This document shows positions 1,793 through 44,108 of a stretch of 54,320 nucleotides of DNA, one piece after another. The stretch covers positions 1 through 54,320 of the IMG/VR virus record IMGVR_UViG_3300031673_000059. One strand, given 5' to 3'. The notes beneath the pieces were generated by a model. That model did no database searches, was not told the DNA's origin, and was given only the letters and a program-made list of their open reading frames with translations. The number at the start of each line of letters is the position of its first letter. Positions within the stretch are counted from its first letter, which is position 1. A program made the position numbers and the translations under genes. This DNA is from a virus.

Positions 1793-2231
1793 GGCAGCGC
1801 CAGGCTGCGCGCATGGTCTCTGGACGAACCATGTCGAAGTTCTCTCTGTGTCGCCTTATGCACGGCTCCCTGCGGAGAACACGGAGGCGGGTCGTCCAAC
1901 CGCCACCACGAGCAACATACGCATCAGTGATGCTGTATATGGCGTTCAGGTAAGCCCCACGAACTGGCGGCTCGGCGACGAAGTCGAACGTCATGATCTG
2001 GTAATCGACAACGCCGCCCTGCTCATCAATCGATCCACGACCGCTTTGAGAGATACCGACGCTCGAACCTTCGTTGAGCGCAGCCCGGAACCGCTCAGCG
2101 GCCTCGCCACGCAGCTCGAAGGCCGACGTCATCGTGCTCGCCCACGATTGGGTTCCGGTGACCGGGTTCTGGTTCGACGCAGCACCAGTAGGTGCCTCGG
2201 GCAGCGCGACTCTTACCTCGTCTGCTGATGT
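1788..2231 (-). CDS. +1-frame continuation of the gp23-like module of the FGE fusion protein (frameshift, error or pseudogene)
   Basis: The C-terminal part of track ORF 1788..2516 (...SADEVRVALPEAPTGAAS...MTSAFELRGEAAERFRAAL...) continues the order of conserved blocks seen in the capsid paralogs. Over the same DNA, the tail of frame A is Arg-rich and junk-like. Confidence 0.4.
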   Translation of the reverse strand, partial: TSADEVRVALPEAPTGAASNQNPVTGTQSWASTMTSAFELRGEAAERFRAALNEGSSVGISQSGRGSIDEQGGVVDYQIMTFDFVAEPPVRGAYLNAIYSITDAYVARGGGWTTRLRVLRREPCIRRHRENFDMVRPETMRAAWRCR

Positions 2232-5200
2232 TGTCGAGGTAGAAAAGCATTCCGGCTCGGTTGTCGAGTGGTTGAAGAGGGGGCGGCCAGAAGGGGTTGG
2301 AGAGTCCCTGTCTGACGAGGGGTCCTGCGAACCGGAGGAATGCTGAGTCGCTGCCCCCCTCAGCGACGACTCGGTCCATGTGTCGCTGGTGGTTTTCGAG
2401 GAGCATGCCTGTAAGAGCTCTTGTGAAACTGTCGTCGACTCCTTCGAGGAGGGGGGCCCATTTCTGGGTGTAGCGGTTGACGATGCTCTGAAACTCTGGT
2501 GCCTCAGCAGCGGCACCTCCAGGCCGCTCTTGGAGTAACTCCTGCCTCAACCTCGTCATGGTAGCGAGGATCTCTGATGGTTGAATCGGCGGTGTCGCAG
2601 ACCCAGTTGAGTCCTCGGACGACGCGACCGTCGTCCACACCTCGCTCGGGGGTGCCGTCGTCGATGGTGGCGCAGAAGACGTTGAGTCCGAGTAACTCGG
2701 GTCCGGGAGCGCCGCCGACGATCCGGACCCACTCAGAAAATCCGAGTCACCTCGCTCTCCAGGCTGACCTGGGCCCGAGCCAGCAACGATGTTCACCGGC
2801 TCGGATGATCCTGGAGTCGAAGGCCTCTCCATGCTGGTAGGACTGCCAGTTACCTCCTCGGACGGTGCAGGATCCGAACCCCATCTGCTCGATGGCTCGG
2901 TCCATGACGGATCGTAGGTAGATTCGACCGCTGGTGTTCCGGGGGGCGATTCCGAAGGTTCCCTCGACGATGTGTGTGAGTGGTCTTGGGTTGACCATGA
3001 TGGCCGCCGCTTCTGCTCTTGTGATGTTTGGGCCGTAGAGGGCCCTAACCCAAAAGGGACGTCATCGGGCCCTCCATGCCGCCCGTGGACCGGCCGTAAA
3101 GTCGGGGAGTTCGGGATCGAGCCACCAGGAATCGGCCCGATCCCACCCCTGCCAGTCTCCGCCTCTGAGCGTGTAGGCGTCGATCCCGATGTAGTGCGCG
3201 ACTTCGGGCGAGACTCGCATCCAGTTGGCTGGGTTTCTGACGGTGAGCTCGTAGATTCGTTGGGCCGCCGCCGCGACCCTGGCGATAAAGGGAGGTCACC
3301 TTGCTCTCCAGGCGCACCTGAGTCCGACGTCTCTGACGTCGTTTCCGGCACCTCGCTGCCGTCTGGCGACGAAGCCCTCGTCCTCTCCTCTGAGGACCTT
3401 AGGTCGATCCTCGGCGGTGATTGCGATGTAGGGGGCGTAGATGAACCCGGTGTCAAGGACTGTGTCGCCCTTGTAGCCGAAGAGGAACCCCGTCCTGTCT
3501 CCGTCCTGGGACTGGTCAACATGGATGAGGCGGCCGCCGTCTTGGGATGAGAATGGGGGCTCTGGGTGGACCGTCCACCCAGGCCTGATCCGAAACCCGA
3601 GTCACCTCGCTCTCCAGGCCCCTCGGAGTCCGAGTCCGTGGTCGAGGTCCCAGCCCCAGACTCTGCCGGTGTCGAGGCCTGGGTCGGCGAGTTCGAGCCA
3701 GCAGATCCCCCGGACCCTGATCCGGGGCTGGAAGGGTCCGAGCCGACCGGCGTTGCGTCCTCCGCGTAGGGGCCCAACCCCATCCCGAGGTCGGAGTAAG
3801 CGTCCATGTGCTCGTAGTCAGCGTACCGGTCGAGCAGCTGCCCGGAAGGAGACATGAGACTGTCGCTCAAGGACCCCGAGCTGGTCTCGCCATCCTGGAG
3901 ATCCCTCTGGGGGTCGTCCGACATTCCAACTGATGGACTTGAGGATGTATGGGATACCGTCCTGGTAGAAGATGCCTCCGAGGTAGCAGCGTCCGAGTTC
4001 GCCGAGCTCGATCTCGCTGCATGGGTTGACCCCGAAGGCTCCGTAGGGTCCGAGCTAATGAACCCTGGCTCTCCAGGCTGTCCTGACGCCTCCTCGGTCA
4101 ATGTTGTGGCCCCTGAAGGAGGCGCCTCGCTCCCAATCCCGGGGGGACTCATCCCAGGAGTAGCTTCGGATGAGGAATCGATGATGTTGCATGCGCTCTC
4201 GGACGGAGAGGCCTGCGTAGGGTCCGAGCTAGGCTCTCCAGGCTGGTCGGAGTCCTGCGTCCTGGGCCCCTCCGACTGCTCGTCCGATGTTGCTGACGGG
4301 GAACGGATAGGTCCCGCCGTTGAGATGATATGTAGGAGGGAATCCGTAGTCAGGAACGGGGTTGATGTAGGGTCCGGGCGTTGCTCGCCGTTAGCGATGT
4401 AGCCATTCTCGGGCAGGTCCTCGACCCCTCGAACCCACTGGCACCTGGTCCATTCGAAGACGTTCCCGCAGTTGTCGTGGAGCCCCCAGTTGTTCGGATC
4501 CTTCAGGCCAACTGCCTTGTGCCCGTCCTCAAACTCGCCGCCGAACCAGGCGATCTTCTTTAGGTCCTCATCCGTGTCGCCGTTGGGGTAGCGCGTAGTC
4601 GCTCCGGCCTTAGTCGCGTATTCCCACATCGCCTCAGAGGGGAGCTGAAAGCCGACCCGCTCACCCTTCTCGTTCCAGAGCCAGGCCTGGTAGGCCGCCT
4701 CGACCTCTGCTGAGAACACCAGCGCTTGGTTCTGGACAGGCAGAGGCATGATGTCCGTGTTGACCTGTTGCTCCCACTCTCTCCACGTCAGCGTGAAGGT
4801 CTGATCTGAGTGTGTGAACTTGCAGTTGGTCAACCGTGCAAAGTCCAGCCGGTTGATGAAGTCCTCGACCTCACGGCACCGATCCCAGGAGACGCTCTCA
4901 ACAGGGTGCTCCCCCCACCTGCGCCCATCAGAGTCCTTCAACTCCATGCGGGTCGCAGGCCCGAACGGCGCGTCACCCATGCGGGTGACGTTAAGCCCCT
5001 CCTCGACCATTTCGGTCGTAGGGAAGTGACTCGGGAACTCACGTGTGACGCGGTACCACTCACGCCCGGTCCACGGGTACTTCGCCATCAGGAATGGCTC
5101 GTCGAAGGTCCGCTTGACCTGTTGCTGGGCCGTCTCATCATCAGGGTCCGCAGTGGGACCCATCATGAACTCACCCGAAGGGATCAGAACGAAGATCATC

Positions 5201-5400
5201 CCCGTCGTCTTGTGCTGATACTCAGCCAGGCCTTGGGAGTTGAGCCCGAGACACGAGAAGAGCTCAGTCTCCTCTACGCGCAGTCCGTAGGGGACGTCGT
5301 TTCCGGCCCTGCGGATTCGCGTGATGTAGTCGCCGCGATCGGCCGCGTCGCCTGTAGCCTGCCAACGGCGTTCTGCTGCTCTTAAAGCGGCGTCTGACAT
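2095..5400 (-). CDS. FGE-sulfatase (SUMF1/EgtB/PvdO-type) domain protein with long S/P/T/G/E/D-rich disordered tether and C-terminal gp23-like N-arm module
   Basis: ORF track, 1101 aa. FGE signatures: IPSGEFMMGP, HPVESVSWDRC, LPSEAMWEYATKAG, NNWGLHDNCGNVFEWT. The C-terminal QKWAPLLEGVDD..LLENHQRH..LQPLDNRAGMLFYLD matches the T4 gp23 N-terminal region and the paralogs at 33.8-35.8 kb. AGGAG lies upstream of ATG 5400. Confidence 0.8.
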   Translation of the reverse strand: MSDAALRAAERRWQATGDAADRGDYITRIRRAGNDVPYGLRVEETELFSCLGLNSQGLAEYQHKTTGMIFVLIPSGEFMMGPTADPDDETAQQQVKRTFDEPFLMAKYPWTGREWYRVTREFPSHFPTTEMVEEGLNVTRMGDAPFGPATRMELKDSDGRRWGEHPVESVSWDRCREVEDFINRLDFARLTNCKFTHSDQTFTLTWREWEQQVNTDIMPLPVQNQALVFSAEVEAAYQAWLWNEKGERVGFQLPSEAMWEYATKAGATTRYPNGDTDEDLKKIAWFGGEFEDGHKAVGLKDPNNWGLHDNCGNVFEWTRCQWVRGVEDLPENGYIANGEQRPDPTSTPFLTTDSLLHIISTAGPIRSPSATSDEQSEGPRTQDSDQPGEPSSDPTQASPSESACNIIDSSSEATPGMSPPGIGSEAPPSGATTLTEEASGQPGEPGFISSDPTEPSGSTHAARSSSANSDAATSEASSTRTVSHTSSSPSVGMSDDPQRDLQDGETSSGSLSDSLMSPSGQLLDRYADYEHMDAYSDLGMGLGPYAEDATPVGSDPSSPGSGSGGSAGSNSPTQASTPAESGAGTSTTDSDSEGPGERGDSGFGSGLGGRSTQSPHSHPKTAAASSMLTSPRTETGRGSSSATRATQSLTPGSSTPPTSQSPPRIDLRSSEERTRASSPDGSEVPETTSETSDSGAPGEQGDLPLSPGSRRRPNESTSSPSETQPTGCESRPKSRTTSGSTPTRSEAETGRGGIGPIPGGSIPNSPTLRPVHGRHGGPDDVPFGLGPSTAQTSQEQKRRPSWSTQDHSHTSSREPSESPPGTPAVESTYDPSWTEPSSRWGSDPAPSEEVTGSPTSMERPSTPGSSEPVNIVAGSGPGQPGERGDSDFLSGSGSSAALPDPSYSDSTSSAPPSTTAPPSEVWTTVASSEDSTGSATPPIQPSEILATMTRLRQELLQERPGGAAAEAPEFQSIVNRYTQKWAPLLEGVDDSFTRALTGMLLENHQRHMDRVVAEGGSDSAFLRFAGPLVRQGLSNPFWPPPLQPLDNRAGMLFYLDNISRRGKSRAARGTYWCCVEPEPGHRNPIVGEHDDVGLRAAWRGR

Positions 5401-11095: not shown

Positions 11096-11113
11096 ACTCA
11101 TCCGGGAGTGTTC

Positions 11114-12922
11114 ATGTCTGAAGATATCGCTCGACGCATCGAAACCGTCGAGAGCCTGCTCGGGTTCAATCTGCGCAGCTACCAGAACCAGGCGCTGACC
11201 GCCATCGGTCAAGGAAAGAACGTGATCTTGCACGTTCCGACCGGCGGCGGAAAGACGGTTGCGTTTCAAGGCGCTCCCTACGTGTCCCCCCATGATGGGA
11301 TCACGGTGATCCTCTATCCGCTGAGGGCTCTGGTGAAGGATCAGACTCGTCGCTTCAAGGAGATCGGTCTACCGTCCGTGACGCTATATGGGGAGACTCC
11401 TCCTAAAGACCGTCCGGCTATCTATGAGAGGATCGCCAACGGTAGCGCCAAGATCCTCCTTACGACTCCCGAGTCGTTCGACATGAATCGCCGCCTCCAG
11501 GCGGTACTCACTGAGCGAGGCGTGTCAGTCCTTACGGTTGATGAGGCCCATGCCTACGAGGAGTGGGCCGACGGCTTCAGACCGACATACCGGCGGGCCG
11601 GGCACGTCGCCCAGCGTGTAGGTGTGAAGCAGTTCCTCCTCTGCTCGGCGACCCTGACATCCAAGGGGTTCAAGACGGCTAGGGAGACCATCGGCCAGGA
11701 CAACTGGACCATCGTTCAGGTCCCGCCCATCAGGTCCAATCTCGTATACCGAGATCTGAGTGAGCCCAGCAGTGAGATCCTCTGTCGCGCCGTTCGCGGG
11801 GATGGTCTGGAAGCTCCTGGGATCGTCTTCTTCACGACGGTCAAGTGCCTGAACGAGACAGCCGACTTCATCGAACGGAAGACCAGGCGAAAGGTCCTTC
11901 GCTACAACGGTGGTATGACCGGCAAGGACCGCAGGGAGGCCCAGGATACTTTCATGTCCGGCGACCACTGGATCTTCGCTACCAAAGCGTTCGGCATGGG
12001 CATCGACAAGGACAACATCAGAAACATCATCCACTTCCAGCTACCCAATTCGATTCTCTCATACGCCCAAGAATGCGGAAGATCGGGTCGAGACGGCCAC
12101 GAGTCGACCTGTTTTCTGACCCAGAGCGAGGACGGCAACGCGGCCCAGTTCCTGATCAGCATGAGCGTCCCATCGATCAATCAGGTGCGCAGGGTCTGGA
12201 ACCTCCTTCAGACCCACTCCCTGAACTACGCCGACTGGTTTGATGTTGACTGGCCTGAGATCGCCAGCAGGGCGGATTTCTCGATCCAGCTGGTCCAGGC
12301 CTGTGTGAGCTGGCTGTTTACCGGAAAGATGATCGAGAAGAAGCAGAAGAGGCTCAACTGGAAGTTCACGATTCACGCTGATTCCGATGAGAAGGCCATC
12401 AAGTACAAGAGAAAGACGCCAGAAATCCTCGACATGCTGCGCGCGGAAGCGATGGTCGAGCAGGGACCTTCAACCTTCGAGCTGCGGCCTGAGTTACTGT
12501 CCGACAGTGTGGGCCAGGTGTTCGTCGGCTGGAGGGCGAAGCTTCGGAAGATGGTCGAGCTCGGGATCATCGAGATCGATGAGCCTCCTAAGGCGAAGTC
12601 TCAGTATCGATTCCTCCACAGGAGTTTTCACTTTGCCCAGGGCGAGGAGCAGCTGACTAAGTCTCGCTCAAGGGCGTTCGATCGTCTGGACGACATGCGA
12701 CGGCTGCAGGCCGCCCCTCCTCATCAACGGCGAAATCTCATGGAGGCGGCCATCTCTCTCAAGCTCGGCAACATCGATGGGCTTGAGATCATGGACGGTC
12801 AATACGATGAGCCGGTCGCGCCATCCAAGCCAGCCCAGAAGAAGAAGAAGAGCGAATCCACCGACCCGTTCAAGTTCGATGGGGACGGCGATGACGACGA
12901 CCCGTTCGTCATTCCCTTCTAG
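11114..12922 (+). CDS. recQ: RecQ-family DEAH-box DNA helicase
   Basis: Motifs are HVPTGGGKT, TVDEAHAYEEW, ATKAFGMGIDKDNIRNIIHFQLP and QECGRSGRDG. The start could be ATG 11114 or GTG 11108. Confidence 0.9.
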   Translation: MSEDIARRIETVESLLGFNLRSYQNQALTAIGQGKNVILHVPTGGGKTVAFQGAPYVSPHDGITVILYPLRALVKDQTRRFKEIGLPSVTLYGETPPKDRPAIYERIANGSAKILLTTPESFDMNRRLQAVLTERGVSVLTVDEAHAYEEWADGFRPTYRRAGHVAQRVGVKQFLLCSATLTSKGFKTARETIGQDNWTIVQVPPIRSNLVYRDLSEPSSEILCRAVRGDGLEAPGIVFFTTVKCLNETADFIERKTRRKVLRYNGGMTGKDRREAQDTFMSGDHWIFATKAFGMGIDKDNIRNIIHFQLPNSILSYAQECGRSGRDGHESTCFLTQSEDGNAAQFLISMSVPSINQVRRVWNLLQTHSLNYADWFDVDWPEIASRADFSIQLVQACVSWLFTGKMIEKKQKRLNWKFTIHADSDEKAIKYKRKTPEILDMLRAEAMVEQGPSTFELRPELLSDSVGQVFVGWRAKLRKMVELGIIEIDEPPKAKSQYRFLHRSFHFAQGEEQLTKSRSRAFDRLDDMRRLQAAPPHQRRNLMEAAISLKLGNIDGLEIMDGQYDEPVAPSKPAQKKKKSESTDPFKFDGDGDDDDPFVIPF

Positions 12923-18429: not shown

Positions 18430-19611
18430 CTAGTCTATTGATCCGACGATCCGATCGAGCACACCGACCATGTCGAGCATTGTCCCTAGGTATTCGATCG
18501 CCTTGTCTTTCCCCCAGGCGTGGAGCAGACACTCCCTCTCCTTGGGGCCGCCCTTGCAGGTTACCCCGTCCTTCTCGCCGAGCGCCTTGACTACGCTCGA
18601 ATCGAACGCCTCGTTGTTCTTCCTCTGCATCTTGATGTTGATGACCCTCTTCCGAGGGCCGATGGTGATGGTGTAGTCGCCGTAGGCGATGGCGTACCAA
18701 GGCTCGTTTTTGAACTGGTCCTTGTAGTAGCCGTTGGGGAGCTCCGTCCTCGTCTTGTTGGCCAGTCCGACCGCCTCGAAGATCTCGTTGAAGAGCTTGG
18801 CGTGCCGGAGCTTGATCGGGTCGACCGGGACCTCGATTTCCTGACTCCGCCCTGCGTCCACCGCCTCCCAGGTCCACTCGCCGTCGACCTTGTTCTGGAT
18901 CCAGACGCTGACCTCATCGCCGGGAACCTGGGGAGGGATAGGGGACGCAGGGTGCCCAGTCTGGTACCAGGACTTCTTGCCGGCCGCCGCGTGGGCTTCG
19001 AGCGCGTCTAGGATCTCCTGGGAGTGTCTCTTTACCTCGTAGAGGGCGTTCTCGGCCATGTTCTTGAGAACTGCCATCCGGTCGATGGCGTCAGGGGCGT
19101 CCATCATGCCCCATTCCGAGCCCGGGTCTGACACCCGCCTCTTCCAGTTGGGCTCCCACTGACCGATGGTTTTCAGGAGGCCGAGGAGCAGAGGACCCTT
19201 CTTGGGCTCGGCTACCCCGCCATCGAGAAGCGGAAAGACCAGCATCCCGATCGGGCCTCCGGCTCCGAGTTCGGCCAGCCTAGCGACAGCAGTGTTCCGA
19301 TCTGCCTCAGGGGTCAAGGGGGTGACAAGCGCTCTGAGCTGAGAGACCTCTTCGTCGAAGGCGGCCTTGTTGGCCCGCCAGGTCTTGAGGACCGTGCCGT
19401 TGAACCAGTCGGCCACCCTCTCGGAGAGACCCTCGCCCGGCTTCCGCATGAGCATGAAGAGGTTCCCGCCGTCGGCGGCCATATGGACCCCGAACCGGTC
19501 GCAGCCCTTGCACTTGAAGTTGCTCTGCGACATCCCGCCGAAGGAACCACCGTGACCCTGCCACTTAGGCGCGGCGCAGATACAGGACGGTACGTTCTCT
19601 GGCAACGCCAT
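18430..19611 (-). CDS. hypothetical protein; C-terminal GVLDRIVGSID
   Basis: ORF track, 393 aa. TAATG overlap with the NADAR gene. Confidence 0.7.
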   Translation of the reverse strand: MALPENVPSCICAAPKWQGHGGSFGGMSQSNFKCKGCDRFGVHMAADGGNLFMLMRKPGEGLSERVADWFNGTVLKTWRANKAAFDEEVSQLRALVTPLTPEADRNTAVARLAELGAGGPIGMLVFPLLDGGVAEPKKGPLLLGLLKTIGQWEPNWKRRVSDPGSEWGMMDAPDAIDRMAVLKNMAENALYEVKRHSQEILDALEAHAAAGKKSWYQTGHPASPIPPQVPGDEVSVWIQNKVDGEWTWEAVDAGRSQEIEVPVDPIKLRHAKLFNEIFEAVGLANKTRTELPNGYYKDQFKNEPWYAIAYGDYTITIGPRKRVINIKMQRKNNEAFDSSVVKALGEKDGVTCKGGPKERECLLHAWGKDKAIEYLGTMLDMVGVLDRIVGSID

Positions 19612-20048
19612 TAGGGCATCTCCATGATCTCTGCTCTGATATCCATCAAAATGCGGCCCAAGTGATTTTCTCCCTCACCCTCACAGACCCCCCAAAAGGT
19701 GTCGCGCCAAGAGTTTCCTTCGACCAGGTGCTGTCGTCCGGTCAGGATCAACTTCTCTCTGAGTCCAGGGTTCTCGAACTTCTTCCGCAGGATCCCTTTC
19801 ATCGTAGCGAGCTTGCAGATCCGCTCATTCTTGGTCCAGCCCTTAGACAGGGTGACCTTCTGGCCCAATCGCTTAGCCTTGCCGCAGGACTTGGCCTCCC
19901 TGATCTCTCGCCTTTGCTCAGGATCATCAGTCTTGGCGGCCTGATAGGCATGCTCTGAAGATGGATAAACGTCCCCCTGCCACTCGATGTCGATCATGTG
20001 GAAGTTGGAGAGCCAGCGGTATTCGCCTTTGAAGTCGGTGATGCTCAC
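19611..20048 (-). CDS. NADAR (YbiA/DUF1768) family protein
   Basis: YRWLSNFH...SSEHAYQAAK...AKRLG...W...KLATMKGILRKKF.NPGLREKLILTGRQHLVEGNSWRDTFWGV...GENHLGRILMDIR. The start is GTG 20048 (GTGA overlap). Confidence 0.85.
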   Translation of the reverse strand: MSITDFKGEYRWLSNFHMIDIEWQGDVYPSSEHAYQAAKTDDPEQRREIREAKSCGKAKRLGQKVTLSKGWTKNERICKLATMKGILRKKFENPGLREKLILTGRQHLVEGNSWRDTFWGVCEGEGENHLGRILMDIRAEIMEMP

Positions 20049-20314
20049 TTCGGCCCCTGACCGTAGGCGTGGTCCCAGTGCTCGTCTTCGGCGATCTCTT
20101 GGTCGGTCGGCAGTCTGTCGACCGTCACCACAGCCTCCAGCCGAGGGGCACCGAGGAGCGGGTAGTTGAAGACCCATTCCACACTCAGGACCTTCATTCG
20201 GTCGTCACTGATGTGCTTGTTGCGGAGGATCGACCCGACGGGCGGTGGCCCGTCTACAGCCTTCATCCTGTAGGGGTCTGGTACGACCCCTGGCCCTTTG
20301 TGCTTGATGATCAT
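20045..20314 (-). CDS. hypothetical protein
   Basis: MIIKHKGPGVV... The start is ATG 20314, with an ATGA overlap with the upstream gene. Confidence 0.6.
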   Translation of the reverse strand: MIIKHKGPGVVPDPYRMKAVDGPPPVGSILRNKHISDDRMKVLSVEWVFNYPLLGAPRLEAVVTVDRLPTDQEIAEDEHWDHAYGQGPK

Positions 20315-20892
20315 TTGTTGAACTGCTCGTAGTCTTCCTCGTCGTAGGCACGACAGGACGGATGATGGGCGTTGCCGCGACTCTCGCCGCAGCAGCACTC
20401 GGAGACGTGTTTGCCGCAGTCACACCACTCGGACGATCGCGACCCCGCCGCGTAGGTCTGGAGCGTGGGCTTAGGCGCAGGCTCAACCGGCTCGATGGGA
20501 GCTGGGCCGACCTTGCCGATCAGCTTGGGGCGGCGCTTCCCCCAAGCCCTGAGTTCTTCTACGTTCGGCGGCCGCCACTCACCAGTCCAGTGCTCGGACG
20601 TGTCCCACTCCTCGGGGTCCTCAGGGTGGTTCGACCTGTAGCTCGTGAGCTTGAGCTCGCCCTCGAATACCCACACACCAGGGGCAGGGGGCTCATCCAA
20701 GCCGTAGTCGCAGATGGACATCGACATGATGTTCTCCACGTAGACGCTGAACATCGGCTTCTCCTCTTCCCAGCTCAGGAGCATGCCATCGCTGCCGTCA
20801 TGCGGAACGGCGGCAAAGACCTTGATCTTCTGGGGACCGCATGTGCCACCCCGGTCGCCTGGTAGCTTGATTTGTTCTCCTCGTGTGCTCAT
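20311..20892 (-). CDS. hypothetical protein with Cys-rich tail
   Basis: MSTRGEQIKLPGD... The start is ATG 20892 (TAATG overlap). Confidence 0.65.
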   Translation of the reverse strand: MSTRGEQIKLPGDRGGTCGPQKIKVFAAVPHDGSDGMLLSWEEEKPMFSVYVENIMSMSICDYGLDEPPAPGVWVFEGELKLTSYRSNHPEDPEEWDTSEHWTGEWRPPNVEELRAWGKRRPKLIGKVGPAPIEPVEPAPKPTLQTYAAGSRSSEWCDCGKHVSECCCGESRGNAHHPSCRAYDEEDYEQFNK

Positions 20893-21565: not shown

Positions 21566-22423
21566 ATGAGATATTACGACAAACGAGGAAACCCCATTAC
21601 GCTGGAGCAGTGGTCTGTTCTCCTCAACGACCCTGACTACCAACGGGTTGCGATCGACCAAGGCTCGGGCAGGCAGGTCTCCACCGTCTGGTTGGGACTG
21701 GATCACCGGCATGGAAGAGGCGGATCGCCGCTTATCTTCGAGACCATGGTCTTTCCGATGAGTCCTAACGGTGATGTAGGCGTGGGCGAAATCGACGCCG
21801 ATCGATACTCCACCCTGGAAGAGGCCCTAGCAGGCCACGCAGAGATGGCAAAGGATCACGCTTACGTGCTGGACAAGATCGTCAGGAAGCTGGAGGAGTC
21901 CGACAAGTCGGTCAAGGTCTGGACCATTCAGACGGAGGCGGCCTACGAGGAGCTCAAGGCGGAGGGAACGCTCTACGGTGACTGGAGCCGGGTGGACAAG
22001 GACTTCAAGAAGGCCTACTACTGGCTCTGCCATCAGATGGAGAATAGGGGCATGAGACTGAGGGGGCGGCCGCCGATCTGGGCTTGGCAGACGAAGCCCG
22101 ACCTCCGGCACAACGCCCATCTCGAAAAGGGCGAGAAGGGCGTTCGACTGGAGTTGGAGGTTCCGTCGGTTGAGCTTCTGGCGTCGAACTACAGTGCATG
22201 GCACTGCGTGCTCAACGATCACTACCTCACGTCTACCGACGCCGAGACCGACAAGGCGTTCTCTGATGACGGCTACACCAGGGATGAGATCGAGCTCAGC
22301 TGGCAGAAGGTGTTCGACCTGGACTACTGCGTGTCCGCCGACTACGGGTCTGCGGTCCAGCTGACGATGCCGGCCCTGGAGCTCCACTACGTGAAGAAGG
22401 CTCAGGCGTTTCGAGGACGGTAG
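21566..22423 (+). CDS. two-domain protein: small phage domain + DUF3841
   Basis: The N-terminal part is TVWLGLDH...LIFETMVF...RYSTLEEALAGH, ending in YVLDKIVRKLEES. The C-terminal part is VWTIQTEAAYEEL...YYWLCHQMENRG...PIWAWQTKPDLR...SAWHCVLND...SWQKVFDL. Confidence 0.8.
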   Translation: MRYYDKRGNPITLEQWSVLLNDPDYQRVAIDQGSGRQVSTVWLGLDHRHGRGGSPLIFETMVFPMSPNGDVGVGEIDADRYSTLEEALAGHAEMAKDHAYVLDKIVRKLEESDKSVKVWTIQTEAAYEELKAEGTLYGDWSRVDKDFKKAYYWLCHQMENRGMRLRGRPPIWAWQTKPDLRHNAHLEKGEKGVRLELEVPSVELLASNYSAWHCVLNDHYLTSTDAETDKAFSDDGYTRDEIELSWQKVFDLDYCVSADYGSAVQLTMPALELHYVKKAQAFRGR

Positions 22424-26982: not shown

Positions 26983-27352
26983 TTGACGACCCTCCTACAG
27001 CATCAACGATGTCATCCAGGATCATAACCCGTCGTAGGTAGGGCAGGACGATGTCTCTCACCCGATGTCTGTTGAGATAGCCACCAGAGCCGTCGTTCTG
27101 GGTGAAGGCCCTATCTCCGTTGATCGAGGACTCTCCGGGGATGAAAAGATCGACCCATAGACCTCGCAGCTGCTCGAACTTGATGTCCACATCCCCGAGC
27201 CGGCAGGTGATCATGGATCCGGATCCCCAGTTCACGGGTATCGACTTGCCGTGGAGCTTCAACAGCTTGAAGCATCGATCCTTGAGCTCTTTGACAAGCG
27301 CCTCTTGGGTAGCATTGTCTTCAGTAGTTCCAGTCTGATCGTCGTCCCACAT
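26951..27352 (-). CDS. hypothetical protein; near-C-terminal MILDDIVDAVGG
   Basis: ORF track, 133 aa. The ATG is 6 nt downstream of GGTAAAAC. Confidence 0.65.
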   Translation of the reverse strand: MWDDDQTGTTEDNATQEALVKELKDRCFKLLKLHGKSIPVNWGSGSMITCRLGDVDIKFEQLRGLWVDLFIPGESSINGDRAFTQNDGSGGYLNRHRVRDIVLPYLRRVMILDDIVDAVGGSSSGRQVADGEG

Positions 27353-27358
27353 GTCTGG

Positions 27359-27366
27359 GTTTTACC
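27359..27366 (-). promoter_or_regulatory. GGTAAAAC, 6 nt, ATG 27352
   Basis: Back-to-back with 27368..27375. Confidence 0.5.
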
Positions 27367-27367
27367 G

Positions 27368-27375
27368 GGTAGAAC
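27368..27375 (+). promoter_or_regulatory. GGTAGAAC, 5 nt, ATG 27381
   Basis: gggtagaac atggt atg. Confidence 0.55.
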
Positions 27376-27380
27376 ATGGT

Positions 27381-28121
27381 ATGACTCGAATGACGATCAT
27401 GAGAGGTGGACCGGGCTCTGGTAAGAGCTTTCAGGTTGCCCAGCTCTGCTTCACCAGGGACAAGGCTCCTGTCGTCTGCTCTGCGGACGAGTTCTTCGTT
27501 GATGACAACGGAAACTACAGCTTCGATCCCAGATGGCTGGGGAGGGCCCACGGCGCTTGCCTGAAGAAGTGCGTGGAGTCGATGGTCGCTCGGGAAAACG
27601 TCATCATCGACAACACCAACAGCAGTCCGACCGAGATGATCCCCTACCTGGCCTTGTGTCAGGCGTTCGGTTATTCCTGCACTGTGATCAAGGTCCTTTG
27701 CGACCGGAAGATCGCTTGGAAGCGGCAGTCGCACGGAGTGCCGGAGGACAAGTTCAACGAGATCCACTCCGCCGTTGAGCAGACCAAGGTCCCGTCCCTT
27801 TACCGGGGTGCTCCGTGGCTGACCGAGAGGGAGGTCAGGTCGGACGGACTCTATCGGCCGCATCCCAAGATCTACCAGCCCTACTCCGGAGCTCGGTGCA
27901 TCAAGTGCTCCGGCAACATCGTCTACAGCTACTCCGACGGGACCAAGGAGGGCTTCCGGTACTGTGACCACGAGGAAGACTGGTGCACGTGCCCTGACGG
28001 TCAAGAGGAGCCAGGGGAACCGTACGCTGGTCTCCCCCGCGAGTGCAACTGCGGGGTGAGCAAAGGCCTGCGGTCCGACCACGAGTCACAGTGTCAGGCG
28101 ACCTACATCCAGAGGAAGTGA
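27381..28121 (+). CDS. P-loop kinase, AAA_33 / N4BP2-like (polynucleotide-kinase-like) with Cys-rich C-terminal extension
   Basis: MRGGPGSGKS...SADEFF...Y.FDP..LGRAHGAC...VIIDNTNSSPTEMIPY...HGVPEDKF. Confidence 0.75.
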   Translation: MTRMTIMRGGPGSGKSFQVAQLCFTRDKAPVVCSADEFFVDDNGNYSFDPRWLGRAHGACLKKCVESMVARENVIIDNTNSSPTEMIPYLALCQAFGYSCTVIKVLCDRKIAWKRQSHGVPEDKFNEIHSAVEQTKVPSLYRGAPWLTEREVRSDGLYRPHPKIYQPYSGARCIKCSGNIVYSYSDGTKEGFRYCDHEEDWCTCPDGQEEPGEPYAGLPRECNCGVSKGLRSDHESQCQATYIQRK

Positions 28122-28723: not shown

Positions 28724-28798
28724 ATTCACCGCATGGACCGCTCGGGGCCTCGCAGAAATAGGGGACACAGAGATCGACTCTCCTGGGTAAGAGAGAGT

Positions 28799-29254
28799 AT
28801 GAGCGACGTCCAACTATATCGAGCATCTGTTGAGATCCTGGTCTGGCACCCTGAAGCTGAGACCTGGGACAAGCCTGACGAGAACCCCCGGCTACTTACG
28901 GTCACAAATCGGCGGTGGGGAGGGTTCTCCTGCCCTGGTGGAAAGGTCGAGAAGGGCGAGAGCCTGATGGCGGCCGCCAGACGGGAGTTCTTCGAAGAGA
29001 CTGGCTGCGAGGCCCACAACCTCGAACAGTGGATGGGCGGGGTTCACTATGACGCGCCGAAGGACGAAGGACCGCCGTGGTTCTGCATGGCATTCTGGGC
29101 CAACATCGGGGATCAGATCCCAACCCAGCAAGAGGAAGGGACGGAGATCGGCTGGCACACGCCTCAACAGCTGATGAGCGACTCTATCTACCCTGAGTGG
29201 TATCGATTCCTCTTCGCCCAAGCGGACATGGGCTACCAACTAAAGGACATCTAA
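28799..29254 (+). CDS. Nudix hydrolase (MutT-like)
   Basis: The Nudix box is PGGKVEKGESLMAAARREFFEETG. Start moved to ATG 28799. Confidence 0.85.
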   Translation: MSDVQLYRASVEILVWHPEAETWDKPDENPRLLTVTNRRWGGFSCPGGKVEKGESLMAAARREFFEETGCEAHNLEQWMGGVHYDAPKDEGPPWFCMAFWANIGDQIPTQQEEGTEIGWHTPQQLMSDSIYPEWYRFLFAQADMGYQLKDI

Positions 29255-29547: not shown

Positions 29548-29858
29548 AGGTCACGGTTAAGGAAGAGTTCGATCTCTTCGAGCTCTTCGTGCATGACACC
29601 GAAGCGATTCACGCCCTCTGCCCATACGAAGTGGCCGAGGCCATTAACGAACACTTGTGCGAATCAGGCTGGAAGGTCAGCCCGCCGGAGAGCCTGAGCC
29701 GGTTCACCCTCTTCAGTATCGATGATGAGGAGGAGGGATACCTGGAGCGCTACTACACCGCCCAACAGGTGAAGGATGCTTTCCCACCCGAGGTTGTCGA
29801 AGCCCTCGAAGAGATCAACGAACTAGAGTTCGATCTCAGCCCGAGGAAGCAGAGCTAG
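29544..29858 (+). CDS. hypothetical acidic protein
   Basis: ORF track, 104 aa. ATGA overlap. Confidence 0.6.
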   Translation: MKVTVKEEFDLFELFVHDTEAIHALCPYEVAEAINEHLCESGWKVSPPESLSRFTLFSIDDEEEGYLERYYTAQQVKDAFPPEVVEALEEINELEFDLSPRKQS

Positions 29859-30370
29859 ACTCCGTGGAGCAGCGCCGACCGTAGGTCATGATGGACCGGA
29901 ATCGGACCAGCTGGCGCCGGAAGGCCCAACGCGGTTGCGAACTTGTCCACACCGTTGGCGATGGATGCTAGGTAGCGGTTCTTGGGCGAACCCTCTGGGA
30001 AGCCCAGGACTACGCGATCGGGCCAAGTGGCGGCCATGAACCCGAACTCGACGTTGGTGGTGAACGCCGGCATATTCTCCAGGTTACGGGGCACCCAGAA
30101 GAGAACTCGCTCGGCACGACCTAGCGCCTGCCACTCCCACTCGACCTGGCGTTGGTAGTCGCCACACCAGCCCCAGTTCTCGTCTTGAGGGACGAAGACG
30201 TAGCCGGTGTAGCCGGCCTCCTCCAAGATCTCCAACGCTTCCTGCCGCCACCCCTGAACGTTCTTGTCGCGCGGTGTTGGTCCCGCCAGGAAGATGCTGT
30301 TGGGTGTGACCCCCCTCCGCGTCGGAGGCAGGTCTTGGGGAACGAAGACGACCTTAGGACCGATGGACAC
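29855..30370 (-). CDS. nucleoside 2-deoxyribosyltransferase-like protein (Nuc_deoxyri_tr2-type)
   Basis: SIFLAGPTPR...WRQEALEIL...QVEWEWQALGRAERVLFWVPRNLENMPAFTTNVEFG. Confidence 0.65.
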   Translation of the reverse strand: MSIGPKVVFVPQDLPPTRRGVTPNSIFLAGPTPRDKNVQGWRQEALEILEEAGYTGYVFVPQDENWGWCGDYQRQVEWEWQALGRAERVLFWVPRNLENMPAFTTNVEFGFMAATWPDRVVLGFPEGSPKNRYLASIANGVDKFATALGLPAPAGPIPVHHDLRSALLHGV

Positions 30371-39283: not shown

Positions 39284-40450
39284 TTAGGCGTCCACGGTTC
39301 CAGACTCGTCCTTGTCGTAGAACCACTCCATGATCCGCTTGTGGATCAGCTCCTCCATCTCGGAGTCCGAGACCCACGGACCAACGCCCGGGAACTCGAA
39401 GAGCGCTCCACCCTCGGCCGATCCATCAGGGAGCGACTTGGCCCCCGACTTGTCGCCGAACCGGTCTGCGAGCGTCTCGCCGAGGGGTGTGGTGTAGTCC
39501 TCGCTCCTGGCGCAGACTCGAATCTTCAGTGTGACATCGCCGGTTGTCTTGTCCTTGACCTCGACAACCGCCCACGTGACCGCCAACGGCGCTCCGACGG
39601 TCCTCAGGAGCTCATCGGCGACCATGGCCAGGTCGTCGCCGCACTTCTCCGGGATCCGGCCCAGACCGCCTAGGATTCGACCCTTACGGTAGGTGTCGTG
39701 CTTGTCCACGTAGGCTACTGCTCGGGACAGGTGCTTCAGGAAGGAGAACTGGCGCTTGTAGTTGACCAGGTCGCAGAGCAAGGAAGCGTCTGTGTAGCGC
39801 TTGACCCAGGCATAGGCCTGGTCATCACGCTCCCCCGACCGTGTGTTGCTCTTGCAGTCGGTGTAAATGCCGAGGGCGAGCATCAGCGCCAGGTCGGATT
39901 TGAACTCCCAGGTCTCCGGCGTGATCTCTGAAAGAAGCTCTGCGACCATCGTACTTGCCGAGCCTGAACTCTCGTCGAGCCAGAGAAAGATGTCCTCTCG
40001 GTCCTTGATGTCAGACTTCTCGTGATGATCGACCACGATCACCGGCTCGATCACGAAGGGCAGGCGGCTGTCCTTTGACTTGCTGGAGTCGACCAGGACG
40101 ATGTTCTCTGGGCACTGACCGGATGAATCAGTGTTCGGGTCCGTGAGCGACCGCATCCTGCTCATCAGACCGAGCTTCTGGCAGAGCGCCTCGTTTTGGG
40201 GATGCCCCACTCGTCCTTGGTAGTAGATGTGAGAGGTATGGCCGAGTTGGCTCAGGACTTCTTGCATACCGAAGGCCGACCCGATTGCGTCGGGGTCGAT
40301 CTGAGCGATGTAGATGGCGAATGGGCCATGCTCGGCCCGTTCCGCCGCCACTCGCCTCAACTTCTCGATACGACTCTCGTCGATACCGGGGCGTGCGATC
40401 TTCCGGGTAACGGTCATCGTCTCCTGGGCAAGCGCCTTTACTTCGGCCAT
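39284..40450 (-). CDS. DHH-family phosphoesterase (NrnA/RecJ-like)
   Basis: IAQIDPDAIGSAFG (DxD motif) and VIVVDHHEKSD (DHH motif). Start moved to ATG 40450 (MAEVKALAQE...). Confidence 0.8.
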   Translation of the reverse strand: MAEVKALAQETMTVTRKIARPGIDESRIEKLRRVAAERAEHGPFAIYIAQIDPDAIGSAFGMQEVLSQLGHTSHIYYQGRVGHPQNEALCQKLGLMSRMRSLTDPNTDSSGQCPENIVLVDSSKSKDSRLPFVIEPVIVVDHHEKSDIKDREDIFLWLDESSGSASTMVAELLSEITPETWEFKSDLALMLALGIYTDCKSNTRSGERDDQAYAWVKRYTDASLLCDLVNYKRQFSFLKHLSRAVAYVDKHDTYRKGRILGGLGRIPEKCGDDLAMVADELLRTVGAPLAVTWAVVEVKDKTTGDVTLKIRVCARSEDYTTPLGETLADRFGDKSGAKSLPDGSAEGGALFEFPGVGPWVSDSEMEELIHKRIMEWFYDKDESGTVDA

Positions 40451-40524
40451 CCTAGAACCTCGCTCGTGCTTAGTGAAATCGGATCTCGCGCGAAGCGCGA
40501 GACCTAGTGTAGTGCGCAGGCTTC

Positions 40525-40532
40525 CTTTTACC
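40525..40532 (-). promoter_or_regulatory. GGTAAAAG motif, 74-nt leader to ATG 40450
   Basis: Plus strand reads cttttacc(c). Divergent with 40548..40555. Confidence 0.4.
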
Positions 40533-40547
40533 CTATCGGCCGAATTC

Positions 40548-40555
40548 GGTATAAC
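40548..40555 (+). promoter_or_regulatory. GGTATAAC, 7 nt, ATG 40563
   Basis: ggtataac aaacccc atg. Confidence 0.5.
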
Positions 40556-40562
40556 AAACCCC

Positions 40563-41027
40563 ATGAACGACACAATCAAAAACGATGACGCTAAGCATCA
40601 ATACGTGTTGGTTGCCATGTGGACCGCGAAGGATCATCACGGGCAAGAGCAATACTCCCACCGAGTGGTTCATTCGACGTGGGAGGGCGAGTGGGACCCG
40701 AAAGGTATCGTCGAGCGCTACGTCCAGACGGAGCACCCGACCTGGATGCCGGACAGCTTCGGCAAGATCGGATACTTCATGGCGGAGGCTGAGGTCGAGC
40801 TCAGCCGAGTCGCGGTCTATAAGGTGGTCGGCGGCCGCCACGAAGACGCCTGGCCTGAATGGCTTGAGGAAGCAAGGGCTAAGCGCGCCTCAATCGATGT
40901 GGAGCGCGAGCGTATGGCCGACATGCAGACGATCGCACTGCTTCAGAGGAAGTGGGGCCTAGGTGAGCAAACAGAAGCCAAAGAAGCGAGCGCAGCGACT
41001 GAAGAGGGCGAAGCGGCGGAAGCATAG
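40563..41027 (+). CDS. hypothetical protein with acidic tail
   Basis: Start moved to ATG 40563 (MNDTIKNDDAKHQYVLVAMW...). Confidence 0.65.
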   Translation: MNDTIKNDDAKHQYVLVAMWTAKDHHGQEQYSHRVVHSTWEGEWDPKGIVERYVQTEHPTWMPDSFGKIGYFMAEAEVELSRVAVYKVVGGRHEDAWPEWLEEARAKRASIDVERERMADMQTIALLQRKWGLGEQTEAKEASAATEEGEAAEA

Positions 41028-43098: not shown

Positions 43099-43407
43099 GT
43101 GGACGTCGACGCAGTTCGCAGAGCAGCAAGCGAGCCATGCGCAGCTTCCCTGACGTCTTGTTCAGAGTGCAAGGGTTCAGGGGAGTGTACTGCTGATGTG
43201 AATGACATTGGTGACTGCAAGAAGTGTGGCTGGTCAGCAGAGAACCACTGGGGCGGATCGCGGCGGTGCACTTCTTGTTTTGGCTGGGGCACAGAGACAG
43301 AGTATCCTTGCTGGCAGTACATCAACGACACGCCTGACCTTTGGTGCGACTCCTGTAAGGCGCAGCCGCCCGAAGTGACGGACGAGCAGTTCTACGAGGA
43401 GCATTAG
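43099..43407 (+). CDS. hypothetical Cys-rich protein
   Basis: ORF track, 102 aa, with about 12 Cys. Confidence 0.6.
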   Translation: MDVDAVRRAASEPCAASLTSCSECKGSGECTADVNDIGDCKKCGWSAENHWGGSRRCTSCFGWGTETEYPCWQYINDTPDLWCDSCKAQPPEVTDEQFYEEH

Positions 43408-44108
43408 TGGCATCAACTCGCGAGACGACGGGTGAACAGCAGGTTCCGGACATCGTCTGGGATCTGCCTCACTTCCAAAGCTGGCTGCAGGCCCAGAAAG
43501 GCGCCGGAAACAGGCTCGACGGGTTCAAGCCTGTTTTCCTCTTCCCTGCCGGGGGAAAGCCTTTCTTTTGGGCAGCCCACGTCAACGTCTACGTGGCATC
43601 CGAGAACCGGAACAAGGTCAACGAGGTGGTTATCTCTCGGCCGGACATCATGCACATCGTCCTGCTCCACAAGCCACTCAGGCTGAGTGACAAGATCAGG
43701 GCGGTGATGGTGCGGGAGTTCCGCTCGCCGGCGGCCACACCGAACGGGTTCATTCTGGAGACTCCCGGCGGAAGCTCGCTCAAGGGCGAGGACCCGCTGA
43801 CCATCGCTTCACAGGAGCTCGAAGAGGAGACCGGCATGGTCATCAGTCCAGATCGGCTAGTGCCCCTTGGGGCTAGGCAGCTGATGGGGACGATGTCTGC
43901 TCACAAGGCTCACGTCTACGCCGCATTGCTCAATGACCAGGACATGGACAGAGCATTGGCAGAGGCTGGGAAGACGCACGGCAACGAGGGCGACTCGGAG
44001 CGAACCTTCGTCGAGGTGCACGACGTTGGCATGCTCGTGCGTGAGCCCACCACCGACTGGGCTACGCTGGGTATGATCTACGCGGCGGCCGAAGCGCTCG
44101 GAATCTAA
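43407..44108 (+). CDS. Nudix hydrolase (ADP-ribose pyrophosphatase-like)
   Basis: The Nudix box is PGGSSLKGEDPLTIASQELEEETG. Confidence 0.8.
   Translation: MASTRETTGEQQVPDIVWDLPHFQSWLQAQKGAGNRLDGFKPVFLFPAGGKPFFWAAHVNVYVASENRNKVNEVVISRPDIMHIVLLHKPLRLSDKIRAVMVREFRSPAATPNGFILETPGGSSLKGEDPLTIASQELEEETGMVISPDRLVPLGARQLMGTMSAHKAHVYAALLNDQDMDRALAEAGKTHGNEGDSERTFVEVHDVGMLVREPTTDWATLGMIYAAAEALGI

Follow-up and report, generated by a model that had tools for sequence, protein, structure and literature searches.

An orphan phage NADAR-domain protein related to AdfN and its candidate role in counter-defence

The NADAR gene and its neighbours

The window analysed here is a stretch of 54,320 nucleotides of viral DNA (IMG/VR record IMGVR_UViG_3300031673_000059), which carries a gene for a NADAR-domain protein in a tightly packed run of minus-strand genes (Table 1). 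The open reading frame was recovered with exactly the boundaries and strand of the original prediction. Several observations favour the GTG start: it shares the four nucleotides GTGA with the stop codon of the upstream gene, an AGGGG sequence lies 6 nt 5' of it, and the homologues (141-149 aa) begin at the residue where the window protein does. The product is a single-domain protein that matches the Pfam NADAR family (PF08719) with E=2.6e-22 and 80.2 bits (gathering score 35.1), the match spanning positions 9-162 of the 163 in the profile, and matches phrog_1017 with E=5e-39; the NADAR signatures, which had been called clear at the outset, are genuine and far above chance. A promoter and terminator scan over 16.5-22.5 kb was uninformative.

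Table 1. Coordinates of the NADAR gene, its motifs and the companion genes in the window (L001 to L013 denote related contigs)
Feature	Coordinates	Strand	Description or evidence
Gene A, 205 aa	20892..21509	-	First gene of the packed block; weak match to phrog_4657
Gene B, 193 aa	20311..20892	-	Conserved upstream neighbour of the NADAR gene: synteny in L001, L004, L012, L013
Gene C, 89 aa	20045..20314	-	Between gene B and the NADAR gene; ATGA and GTGA overlaps
NADAR-domain protein CDS	19611..20048	-	GTG start, TAA stop, 145 aa, no internal stops
Motif SSEHAYQAAK with E32 and K39	19932..19961	-	Translation, homologue alignment
Motif LVEGNSWRDTFWG with E110, D116 and W119	19689..19727	-	Translation, profile alignment to 8bau and 2b3w
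Gene E, 393 aa	18430..19611	-	Translationally coupled, downstream of the NADAR gene
Gene F, 64 aa	18227..18421	-	Last gene of the block; 8-nt spacer with GGAG

The six genes, running from 21509 to 18227, are joined by overlaps of 1, 4, 4 and 1 nt and by the one spacer that precedes gene F, and the translationally coupled block described in the original prediction is physically real. The block is not conserved as a module. In related phages, genes A and B occur together with the NADAR gene (gene A is conserved in L001, and in L012 by position and size, 204 aa), while genes C, E and F, like the nearby GlnII gene, vary between these phages, GlnII lying near the NADAR gene also in L012. As a context for counter-defence, the use to which the prediction had put it, the block lends little weight, since only genes A and B accompany the NADAR gene elsewhere.

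None of the five companions (A, B, C, E and F) matched Pfam, NCBIfam or PADLOC, and gene A was the only one with PHROG matches, which were weak and fell in families of unknown function. Alignments of gene B show a beta-rich domain at the N-terminus and, at the C-terminus, a tail that is rich in Cys and His and nearly invariant (WCxCGKHVSECCCGE..HHPSGRAYDEEDYEQFYK); the N-domain was modelled by AF2 with a pLDDT of ~90, and the model had no significant fold match in the PDB (best Foldseek E=0.47). Gene C is present in this phage only: tblastn against contigs L001 to L008 gave no match except in L008, which is from the same phage, and in L012 and L013 gene B directly overlaps the NADAR gene. Gene E is rare, with 6 homologues in a database of 5.8 billion clusters, and those in L006 and L007 have no adjoining NADAR gene.

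The phage and its relatives

The window has a GC content of 60% and ~85 densely packed ORFs. It is phage DNA, as had been assumed when the NADAR gene was described as a phage copy: two Gp23-like major capsid proteins are encoded side by side, and the window further encodes a tail-collar protein, a DEAD-box helicase and an ATP-dependent DNA ligase. Also encoded are a HerA/FtsK-type ATPase weakly similar to the large terminase, a GlnII glutamine synthetase and two NUDIX proteins.

A 6-kb region had no megablast match among 50,697 GenBank phage records. In metagenomic data, the window has a 99.6% identical counterpart in an ENA contig of 11.4 kb, and further contigs carry the genes for DNA ligase, DUF3841 protein, NADAR and DEAD helicase in this shared order. 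Among the syntenic relatives, a JGI contig measures 358,707 bp, and a contig of 400,294 bp is listed in the cluster of another relative; the NADAR gene thus comes from an uncultivated clade of phages that are large and probably jumbo. With regard to the host, no tRNAs were found in the search for host signals, and the closest NADARs of cellular organisms, scattered over many phyla, reach no more than 52% identity. One metagenome-assembled genome labelled "Nitrospira sp." includes a 17-kb contig whose genes are also found on L001, a phage-like contig.

Homologues of the protein are widespread. By tblastn they occur in 644 of the 50,697 GenBank phage records (~1.3%), mainly in phages of Staphylococcus (181), Streptomyces (125), Vibrio (89), Salmonella (51) and Escherichia (41), and at least 308 IMG/VR stretches encode relatives. 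In public records they are labelled variously as hypothetical, "swarming motility protein", "riboflavin biosynthesis protein", "GTP cyclohydrolase II" or "NADAR family protein". Relatives that are 40-52% identical are common as stand-alone chromosomal genes across many bacterial phyla, and a housekeeping origin or role is for this reason possible.

Fold and active site

The protein has a YbiA-like alpha-helical core flanked by small beta-sheets. Foldseek gave a TM of 0.81 both to E. coli YbiA (2B3W) and to the Phytophthora-type structure 8BAU, the P. nicotianae NADAR with ADP-ribose; in a further fold comparison the values were 18.1 (1.8 A; 140) for 2B3W, 17.3 (2.0 A; 142) for 8BAU and 8.9 (3.3 A; 121) for 8BAT, the DarT1-associated NADAR of G. 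lovleyi. When the PDB was searched by sequence, the single protein found YbiA alone (E=8.7e-16) and the family profile found YbiA (2.4e-32) and 8BAU (5.5e-16); neither query matched a DarG1-type structure.

The active site of NADARs has been described in several members. In the P. nicotianae protein the distal ribose is contacted by E43 and E125, and the pyrophosphate by K50, R79, W89, R93, W133 and, via water, D130, while the catalytic residues of the E. coli C7 NADAR are E88, K95 and D171 (Schuller et al. 2023, PMC11543638); T4 AdfN is impaired by the substitutions E36A and K43A (Johannesman et al. 2025, PMC11825919). In the window protein, E32 and K39, seven residues apart, correspond to E43/K50 of P. 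nicotianae, E88/K95 of E. coli C7 and E36/K43 of T4 AdfN, and both are invariant in 62 homologues as well as in Bas33_0070, YbiA, the P. nicotianae NADAR and T4 gp30.3. E110, D116 and W119 are the counterparts of P. nicotianae E125, D130 and W133, and they too are invariant in the 62 homologues; W71, a further active-site counterpart, is at least 90% conserved among them. The catalytic residues for which the original prediction had proposed an alignment to characterised NADARs, and whose loss it had named as grounds for abandoning the idea, are thus in place (E32, K39 and E110, together with D116 and W119).

Two features set the protein and its relatives apart. The equivalent of R79, a pyrophosphate contact in P. 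nicotianae, is Gln63 in the window protein and in all 24 relatives displayed, with R60 and K64 flanking it in the window protein; and a 4-aa insertion after W71 is common only to this protein and its four nearest relatives.

Which type of NADAR

The residue at the position of P. nicotianae E125 is diagnostic, being Glu in the YbiA family, Asp in DarT1-linked NADARs and His in those of T4-like phages (PMC11543638). With E110 the window protein carries the YbiA-family state. Assignment to the DarG1 antitoxin type was rejected: the position is Glu110 and not Asp (D171 in E. coli C7), a transferase does not adjoin the gene, and the protein is without the basic N-terminal beta1-beta2-alpha1 extension of DarG1, which has been proposed to bind ssDNA (PMC11543638). 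The T4 gp30.3 type was likewise rejected, with an identity of 22%, 16.6 bits to PF08010 against a cutoff of 36, and a different PHROG (E=0.001 for phrog_652, the gp30.3 family, as against the match to phrog_1017).

With 75.6 bits, the protein lies just above the TIGR02464 cutoff (73.7 bits) for a "riboflavin biosynthesis intermediates N-glycosidase", a label that does not discriminate, because relatives of the clade straddle the cutoff (67-90 bits) and AdfN-Bas32, which is active against DarT1, scores 66.8; true YbiA scores 169.5. Neither a RibA/RibD fusion nor riboflavin genes were found among the 48 window ORFs scanned.

By sequence comparison the closest characterised relative is AdfN-Bas32, represented by bas33_0070 of Escherichia phage HildyBeyeler (Bas33), since the Bas32 and Bas33 NADARs are identical according to Johannesman et al. 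(PMC11825919); the two proteins share 43.4% identity over 141 aa (119 bits, E=1.7e-39). The window protein is a member of the published class of phage orphan NADARs, or AdfN (PMC11825919), in a new phage lineage.

Search for a partner ADP-ribosyltransferase

No ADP-ribosyltransferase (ART) domain was found in the 48 window ORFs with Pfam, none in eight genes of the locus with PADLOC, and none among the neighbours with NCBIfam or PHROG. Gene B was considered as an ART and rejected, its N-domain being modelled confidently and having no fold match in the PDB. Gene E was considered as a partner ART and found no support, given its few homologues and their separation from NADAR genes elsewhere.

Clustering of the neighbours at 80 viral and 80 bacterial NADAR loci yielded no ART and no partner that was present in more than 10 loci. 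This absence of a recurrent partner or transferase in 160 loci fits the description of phage NADARs as "orphan". Judged from representative sequences, the top viral neighbours are proteins that we take to resemble SLOG/DUF2493-like, Cys-phosphatase-like, metallophosphatase and PTH2-like proteins.

Proposed role and alternatives

NADARs remove ADP-ribose from guanine and serve as antitoxins of DarT1 (Schuller et al. 2023, PMC11543638), in agreement with the biochemistry given in the original prediction. Johannesman et al. (2025, PMC11825919) demonstrated counter-defence by NADARs of phages, which bear the name AdfN. In E. coli, AdfN-Bas32 needed no further phage factors to neutralise DarT1; on DarTG1 hosts it enabled RB69, T5 and Bas25 to plate again, though T5 was not rescued on DarTG2 (PMC11825919). 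In published assays G-ADPr on DNA and RNA was hydrolysed by every NADAR family tested, and C-ADPr by NADAR and YbiA types. Protection in cells is selective even though activity in vitro is general, E. coli YbiA and T4 gp30.3 being active in vitro and failing to rescue cells from DarT1 (Cihlova et al. 2024).

We consider it somewhat more probable than all other readings together that the window protein is an AdfN-like NADAR that reverses base ADP-ribosylation of phage DNA or RNA by a DarT1-like or other guanine- or cytosine-directed host ART. During infection, such a transferase would modify bases of the phage DNA or RNA. The helical pocket of the NADAR protein may then bind the ADP-ribose through W71, D116, W119 and the basic residues around positions 60-64, and E32, K39 and E110 would cleave the N-glycosidic bond between ribose and base, releasing ADP-ribose; its removal would restore replication or expression. 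The enzymatic activity, the substrate (G-ADPr and possibly C-ADPr, on DNA and/or RNA) and the counter-defence role we infer from homology, and counter-defence is the role that this homology best supports. The idea of counter-defence put forward in the original prediction is supported by the kinship with the tested AdfN-Bas32, which shares the PHROG of the window protein, with the caveat that the window protein is not of the DarG1 partner type.

Several observations weigh against an AdfN-like role. The in-cell protection is selective in the cases of YbiA and gp30.3, and T4 AdfN depends on a T-even context. The basic N-terminal extension of the DarG1 type is absent, and Gln63 stands in the place of P. 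nicotianae R79. The TIGR02464 cutoff is passed, if barely.

This last observation belongs to a different reading, in which the protein would be a YbiA-type metabolite damage-control N-glycosidase that hydrolyses reactive intermediates of the riboflavin pathway (5-amino-6-ribosylamino-uracil derivatives), encoded by an auxiliary metabolic gene. YbiA is the top PDB match in both sequence and fold, E110 is the state of its family, and the phage possesses other metabolic genes (GlnII and the two NUDIX proteins). However, the TIGR02464 label does not discriminate, the window protein is nearer to AdfN-Bas32 than to YbiA (70 bits), the ORFs scanned hold no riboflavin genes, and YbiA itself removes G-ADPr and C-ADPr; we regard a damage-control role as unlikely. 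The conserved residues of the ADP-ribose-binding pocket would also suit a non-catalytic or ADP-ribose-binding inhibitor of an NAD+-consuming defence, modelled on a phage NADAR, attributed to Carabias et al. (2024), that reportedly inhibits Retron-Eco1 with no requirement for enzymatic activity. The invariance of E32, K39 and E110 in 62 homologues argues for selection on catalysis and not on binding alone, and such an inhibitor seems to us slightly more improbable still.

The neighbourhood bears on two further readings. The protein might be the immunity or regulatory partner of an ART encoded by the phage, reversing the phage's own ADP-ribosylation of nucleic acids in the manner of YarT-YbiA or DarT-NADAR. 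YbiA-like NADARs can indeed act as antitoxins of adjoining non-DarT ARTs such as YarT (Cihlova et al. 2024), T4 30.3 lies ~3 kb from the alt ADP-ribosyltransferase gene, and gene B is conserved, uncharacterised and translationally coupled. But the ART searches of the 48 ORFs were negative (in 54 kb of a phage possibly longer than 350 kb), as was PADLOC on the eight genes of the locus; the model of gene B has no ART-like fold match, the homologues of gene E elsewhere lack a NADAR neighbour, and the 160 loci revealed no recurrent ART neighbour, which leaves this the most improbable of the readings considered here. Very improbable, too, is that gene B and the NADAR gene form a functional two-gene module of the jumbo-phage clade. 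Gene B, with its Cys/His-rich tail and a fold unmatched in the PDB, would potentiate or target the enzyme or be a metal-dependent partner, analogous to the T-even factor needed by AdfN-T4; alternatively, the pair would act on a modification of bases, such as C-ADPr or RNA ADPr, that is made by an undescribed defence of non-model hosts.

If the AdfN-like reading is true, coliphages share the AdfN strategy with a clade of large, uncultivated phages from the environment, and base-ADP-ribosylating defences act on the hosts of that clade. The finding adds a data point and not a concept, because homologues are present in ~1.3% of phage genomes and their function is published. Its practical value lies in annotation, such genes still carrying names such as "hypothetical" or "swarming motility protein" in public phage records.

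Comparison with known systems

The DarG1 and other DarT1-associated NADARs compared, 8BAT of G. lovleyi and the E. coli C7 NADAR, differ from the window protein in the features of type given above. The P. nicotianae NADAR (8BAU) is eukaryotic, has extra N-terminal and inserted elements, is 27-29% identical and carries R79 where the window protein has Gln63. The gene of YbiA (2B3W) is chromosomal and part of an operon under LexA control, and the protein has been connected with damage control of riboflavin; YbiA also differs in its far higher TIGR02464 score and in giving no in-cell protection against DarT1 (Cihlova et al. 2024).

AdfN-T4 (gp30.3; Pfam Phage_30_3, phrog_652) resembles the window protein in being an orphan phage NADAR with the E/K pair, and an anti-DarTG1 role has been demonstrated for it; in both phages the NADAR gene lies at most ~3 kb from a DNA ligase gene. 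It differs in its low identity (22%), in reportedly having His instead of Glu at the diagnostic position, and in its need for a T-even factor. Positional orthology with T4 30.3, suggested by the nearby ligase genes, and a common ancestry of the two arrangements are unsupported: the DUF3841 neighbour has no counterpart in T4 30.2, and the sequence of gp30.3 is distant.

AdfN-Bas32 is the nearest counterpart. Both are orphan, single-domain phage NADARs of ~145-149 aa that belong to PHROG 1017 and lack an N-terminal extension, and they share the E/K motif and the pattern LxEGNxWxDTxWGVCxGxGxNxLG with Glu at the diagnostic position. The phages differ, that of AdfN-Bas32 being a T5-like siphovirus of the Markadamsvirinae and the one described here a large, T4-like phage with a Gp23-type capsid, and the proteins differ in that Bas33 has Arg where the window clade has Gln63 and that the window protein has the 4-aa insertion after W71. 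Of the two, the Bas32 protein is the one whose activity has been tested.

Mobile elements and duplicated NADAR ends

Mobile elements are active in the phage clade to which the window belongs. The L001 ortholog of the DEAD-box helicase (1424 aa; L001 is a related metagenomic contig) is split by an intein that carries a LAGLIDADG/Hom_end endonuclease; the window copy lacks this intein. In the same related phage, a GIY-YIG homing-endonuclease gene lies directly after the NADAR gene and is followed downstream by a residual duplicate of the C-terminal end of NADAR, GVCQGEGENHLGRILMDTRAEIIEE, which is 87.5% identical to residues 120-143 of the window NADAR; the GIY-YIG cassette appears to have supplied a replacement 3' end, keeping NADAR intact. 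A similar partial duplicate, of a 149-aa gene, occurs after a 208-aa insert in another related contig (L004 9580-9675).

NADAR relatives are also found in bacteria: the Bryobacterales chromosome OZ241991.1 carries at least four copies (loci L026, L027, L028 and L032), which share roughly 50% identity with the window NADAR. Because these copies are scattered across the chromosome and have flanking ORF-like sequence in common, they suggest that the Bryobacterales NADARs are borne on a repeated mobile element.

Coordinates of features in the window and of their counterparts in related contigs
Feature	Window position	Strand	Pfam or PHROG match	Position in related contigs
1101-aa protein	2095..5400	(-)		
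DEAD-box helicase, 604 aa, intein-free	11108..12922	(+)		L001 13099-16450 (ortholog)
GlnII-type glutamine synthetase, 361 aa	17055..18140	(-)	Gln-synt_C, Gln-synt_N	
Gene B C-terminal tail	20314..20439	(-)		L012 6508-6621; L014 6523-6636
DUF3841 protein gene	21566..22423	(+)		L001 4109-4618; L004 5247-5774; L012 3565-4422
Nucleotide-/ADP-ribose-related enzyme genes	28733..29254; 43407..44108; 29855..30370; 27351..28121; 39284..40579	(+); (+); (-); (+); (-)		
Gp23-like major capsid protein gene, 321 aa	33841..34806	(-)	Gp23, phrog_138	
Gp23-like major capsid protein gene, 317 aa	34825..35778	(-)	Gp23, phrog_138	
867-aa ORF	51434..54037	(-)		
GIY-YIG homing-endonuclease gene and leftover NADAR C-terminus				L001 8478-9256; L002 1257-1969

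Conserved neighbours of NADAR

The DUF3841 gene is divergent from the block formed by genes A and B and NADAR, and its position between DNA ligase and NADAR is kept in all related phage contigs examined. Within this block, gene B ends in a Cys/His-rich tail of about 37 aa that is almost invariant, WCxCGKHVSECCCGE(D/S)HxxPHHPSGRAYDEEDYEQFYK; conservation is much higher in this tail than in the N-terminal domain, where identity is about 40%. Nucleotide changes in the tail fall mainly at third codon positions, so it is the tail peptide that is under selection. The tail was found in only 4 cluster representatives among 1.84 billion proteins, and in the protein P0138 it is joined to an N-terminus unrelated to that of gene B. 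The tail might bind metal, be the substrate of a modification or serve as a targeting tag.

Metabolic enzymes and structural proteins

The glutamine synthetase scores 449 bits against NF041605, below the cutoff of 500. In L012, a related contig, a gene for this enzyme likewise lies close to NADAR, and the phage gene is likely to be an auxiliary nitrogen-metabolism gene. The window further encodes two NUDIX hydrolases, a nucleoside 2-deoxyribosyltransferase-like protein, an AAA_33/zeta-toxin-like kinase and a DHH phosphoesterase. As a putative link, a NUDIX enzyme could dispose of the ADP-ribose that NADAR releases, but the NUDIX genes do not lie next to NADAR.

Among the large proteins, the 1101-aa product has an FGE-sulfatase (formylglycine-generating-enzyme-like) domain; the 867-aa ORF has no match in Pfam or PHROG, and its first-codon-position GC of 0.87 is unusual. 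The two Gp23-like capsid genes are paralogues lying side by side, and could be the counterparts of a T4-like head's major capsid and vertex proteins.
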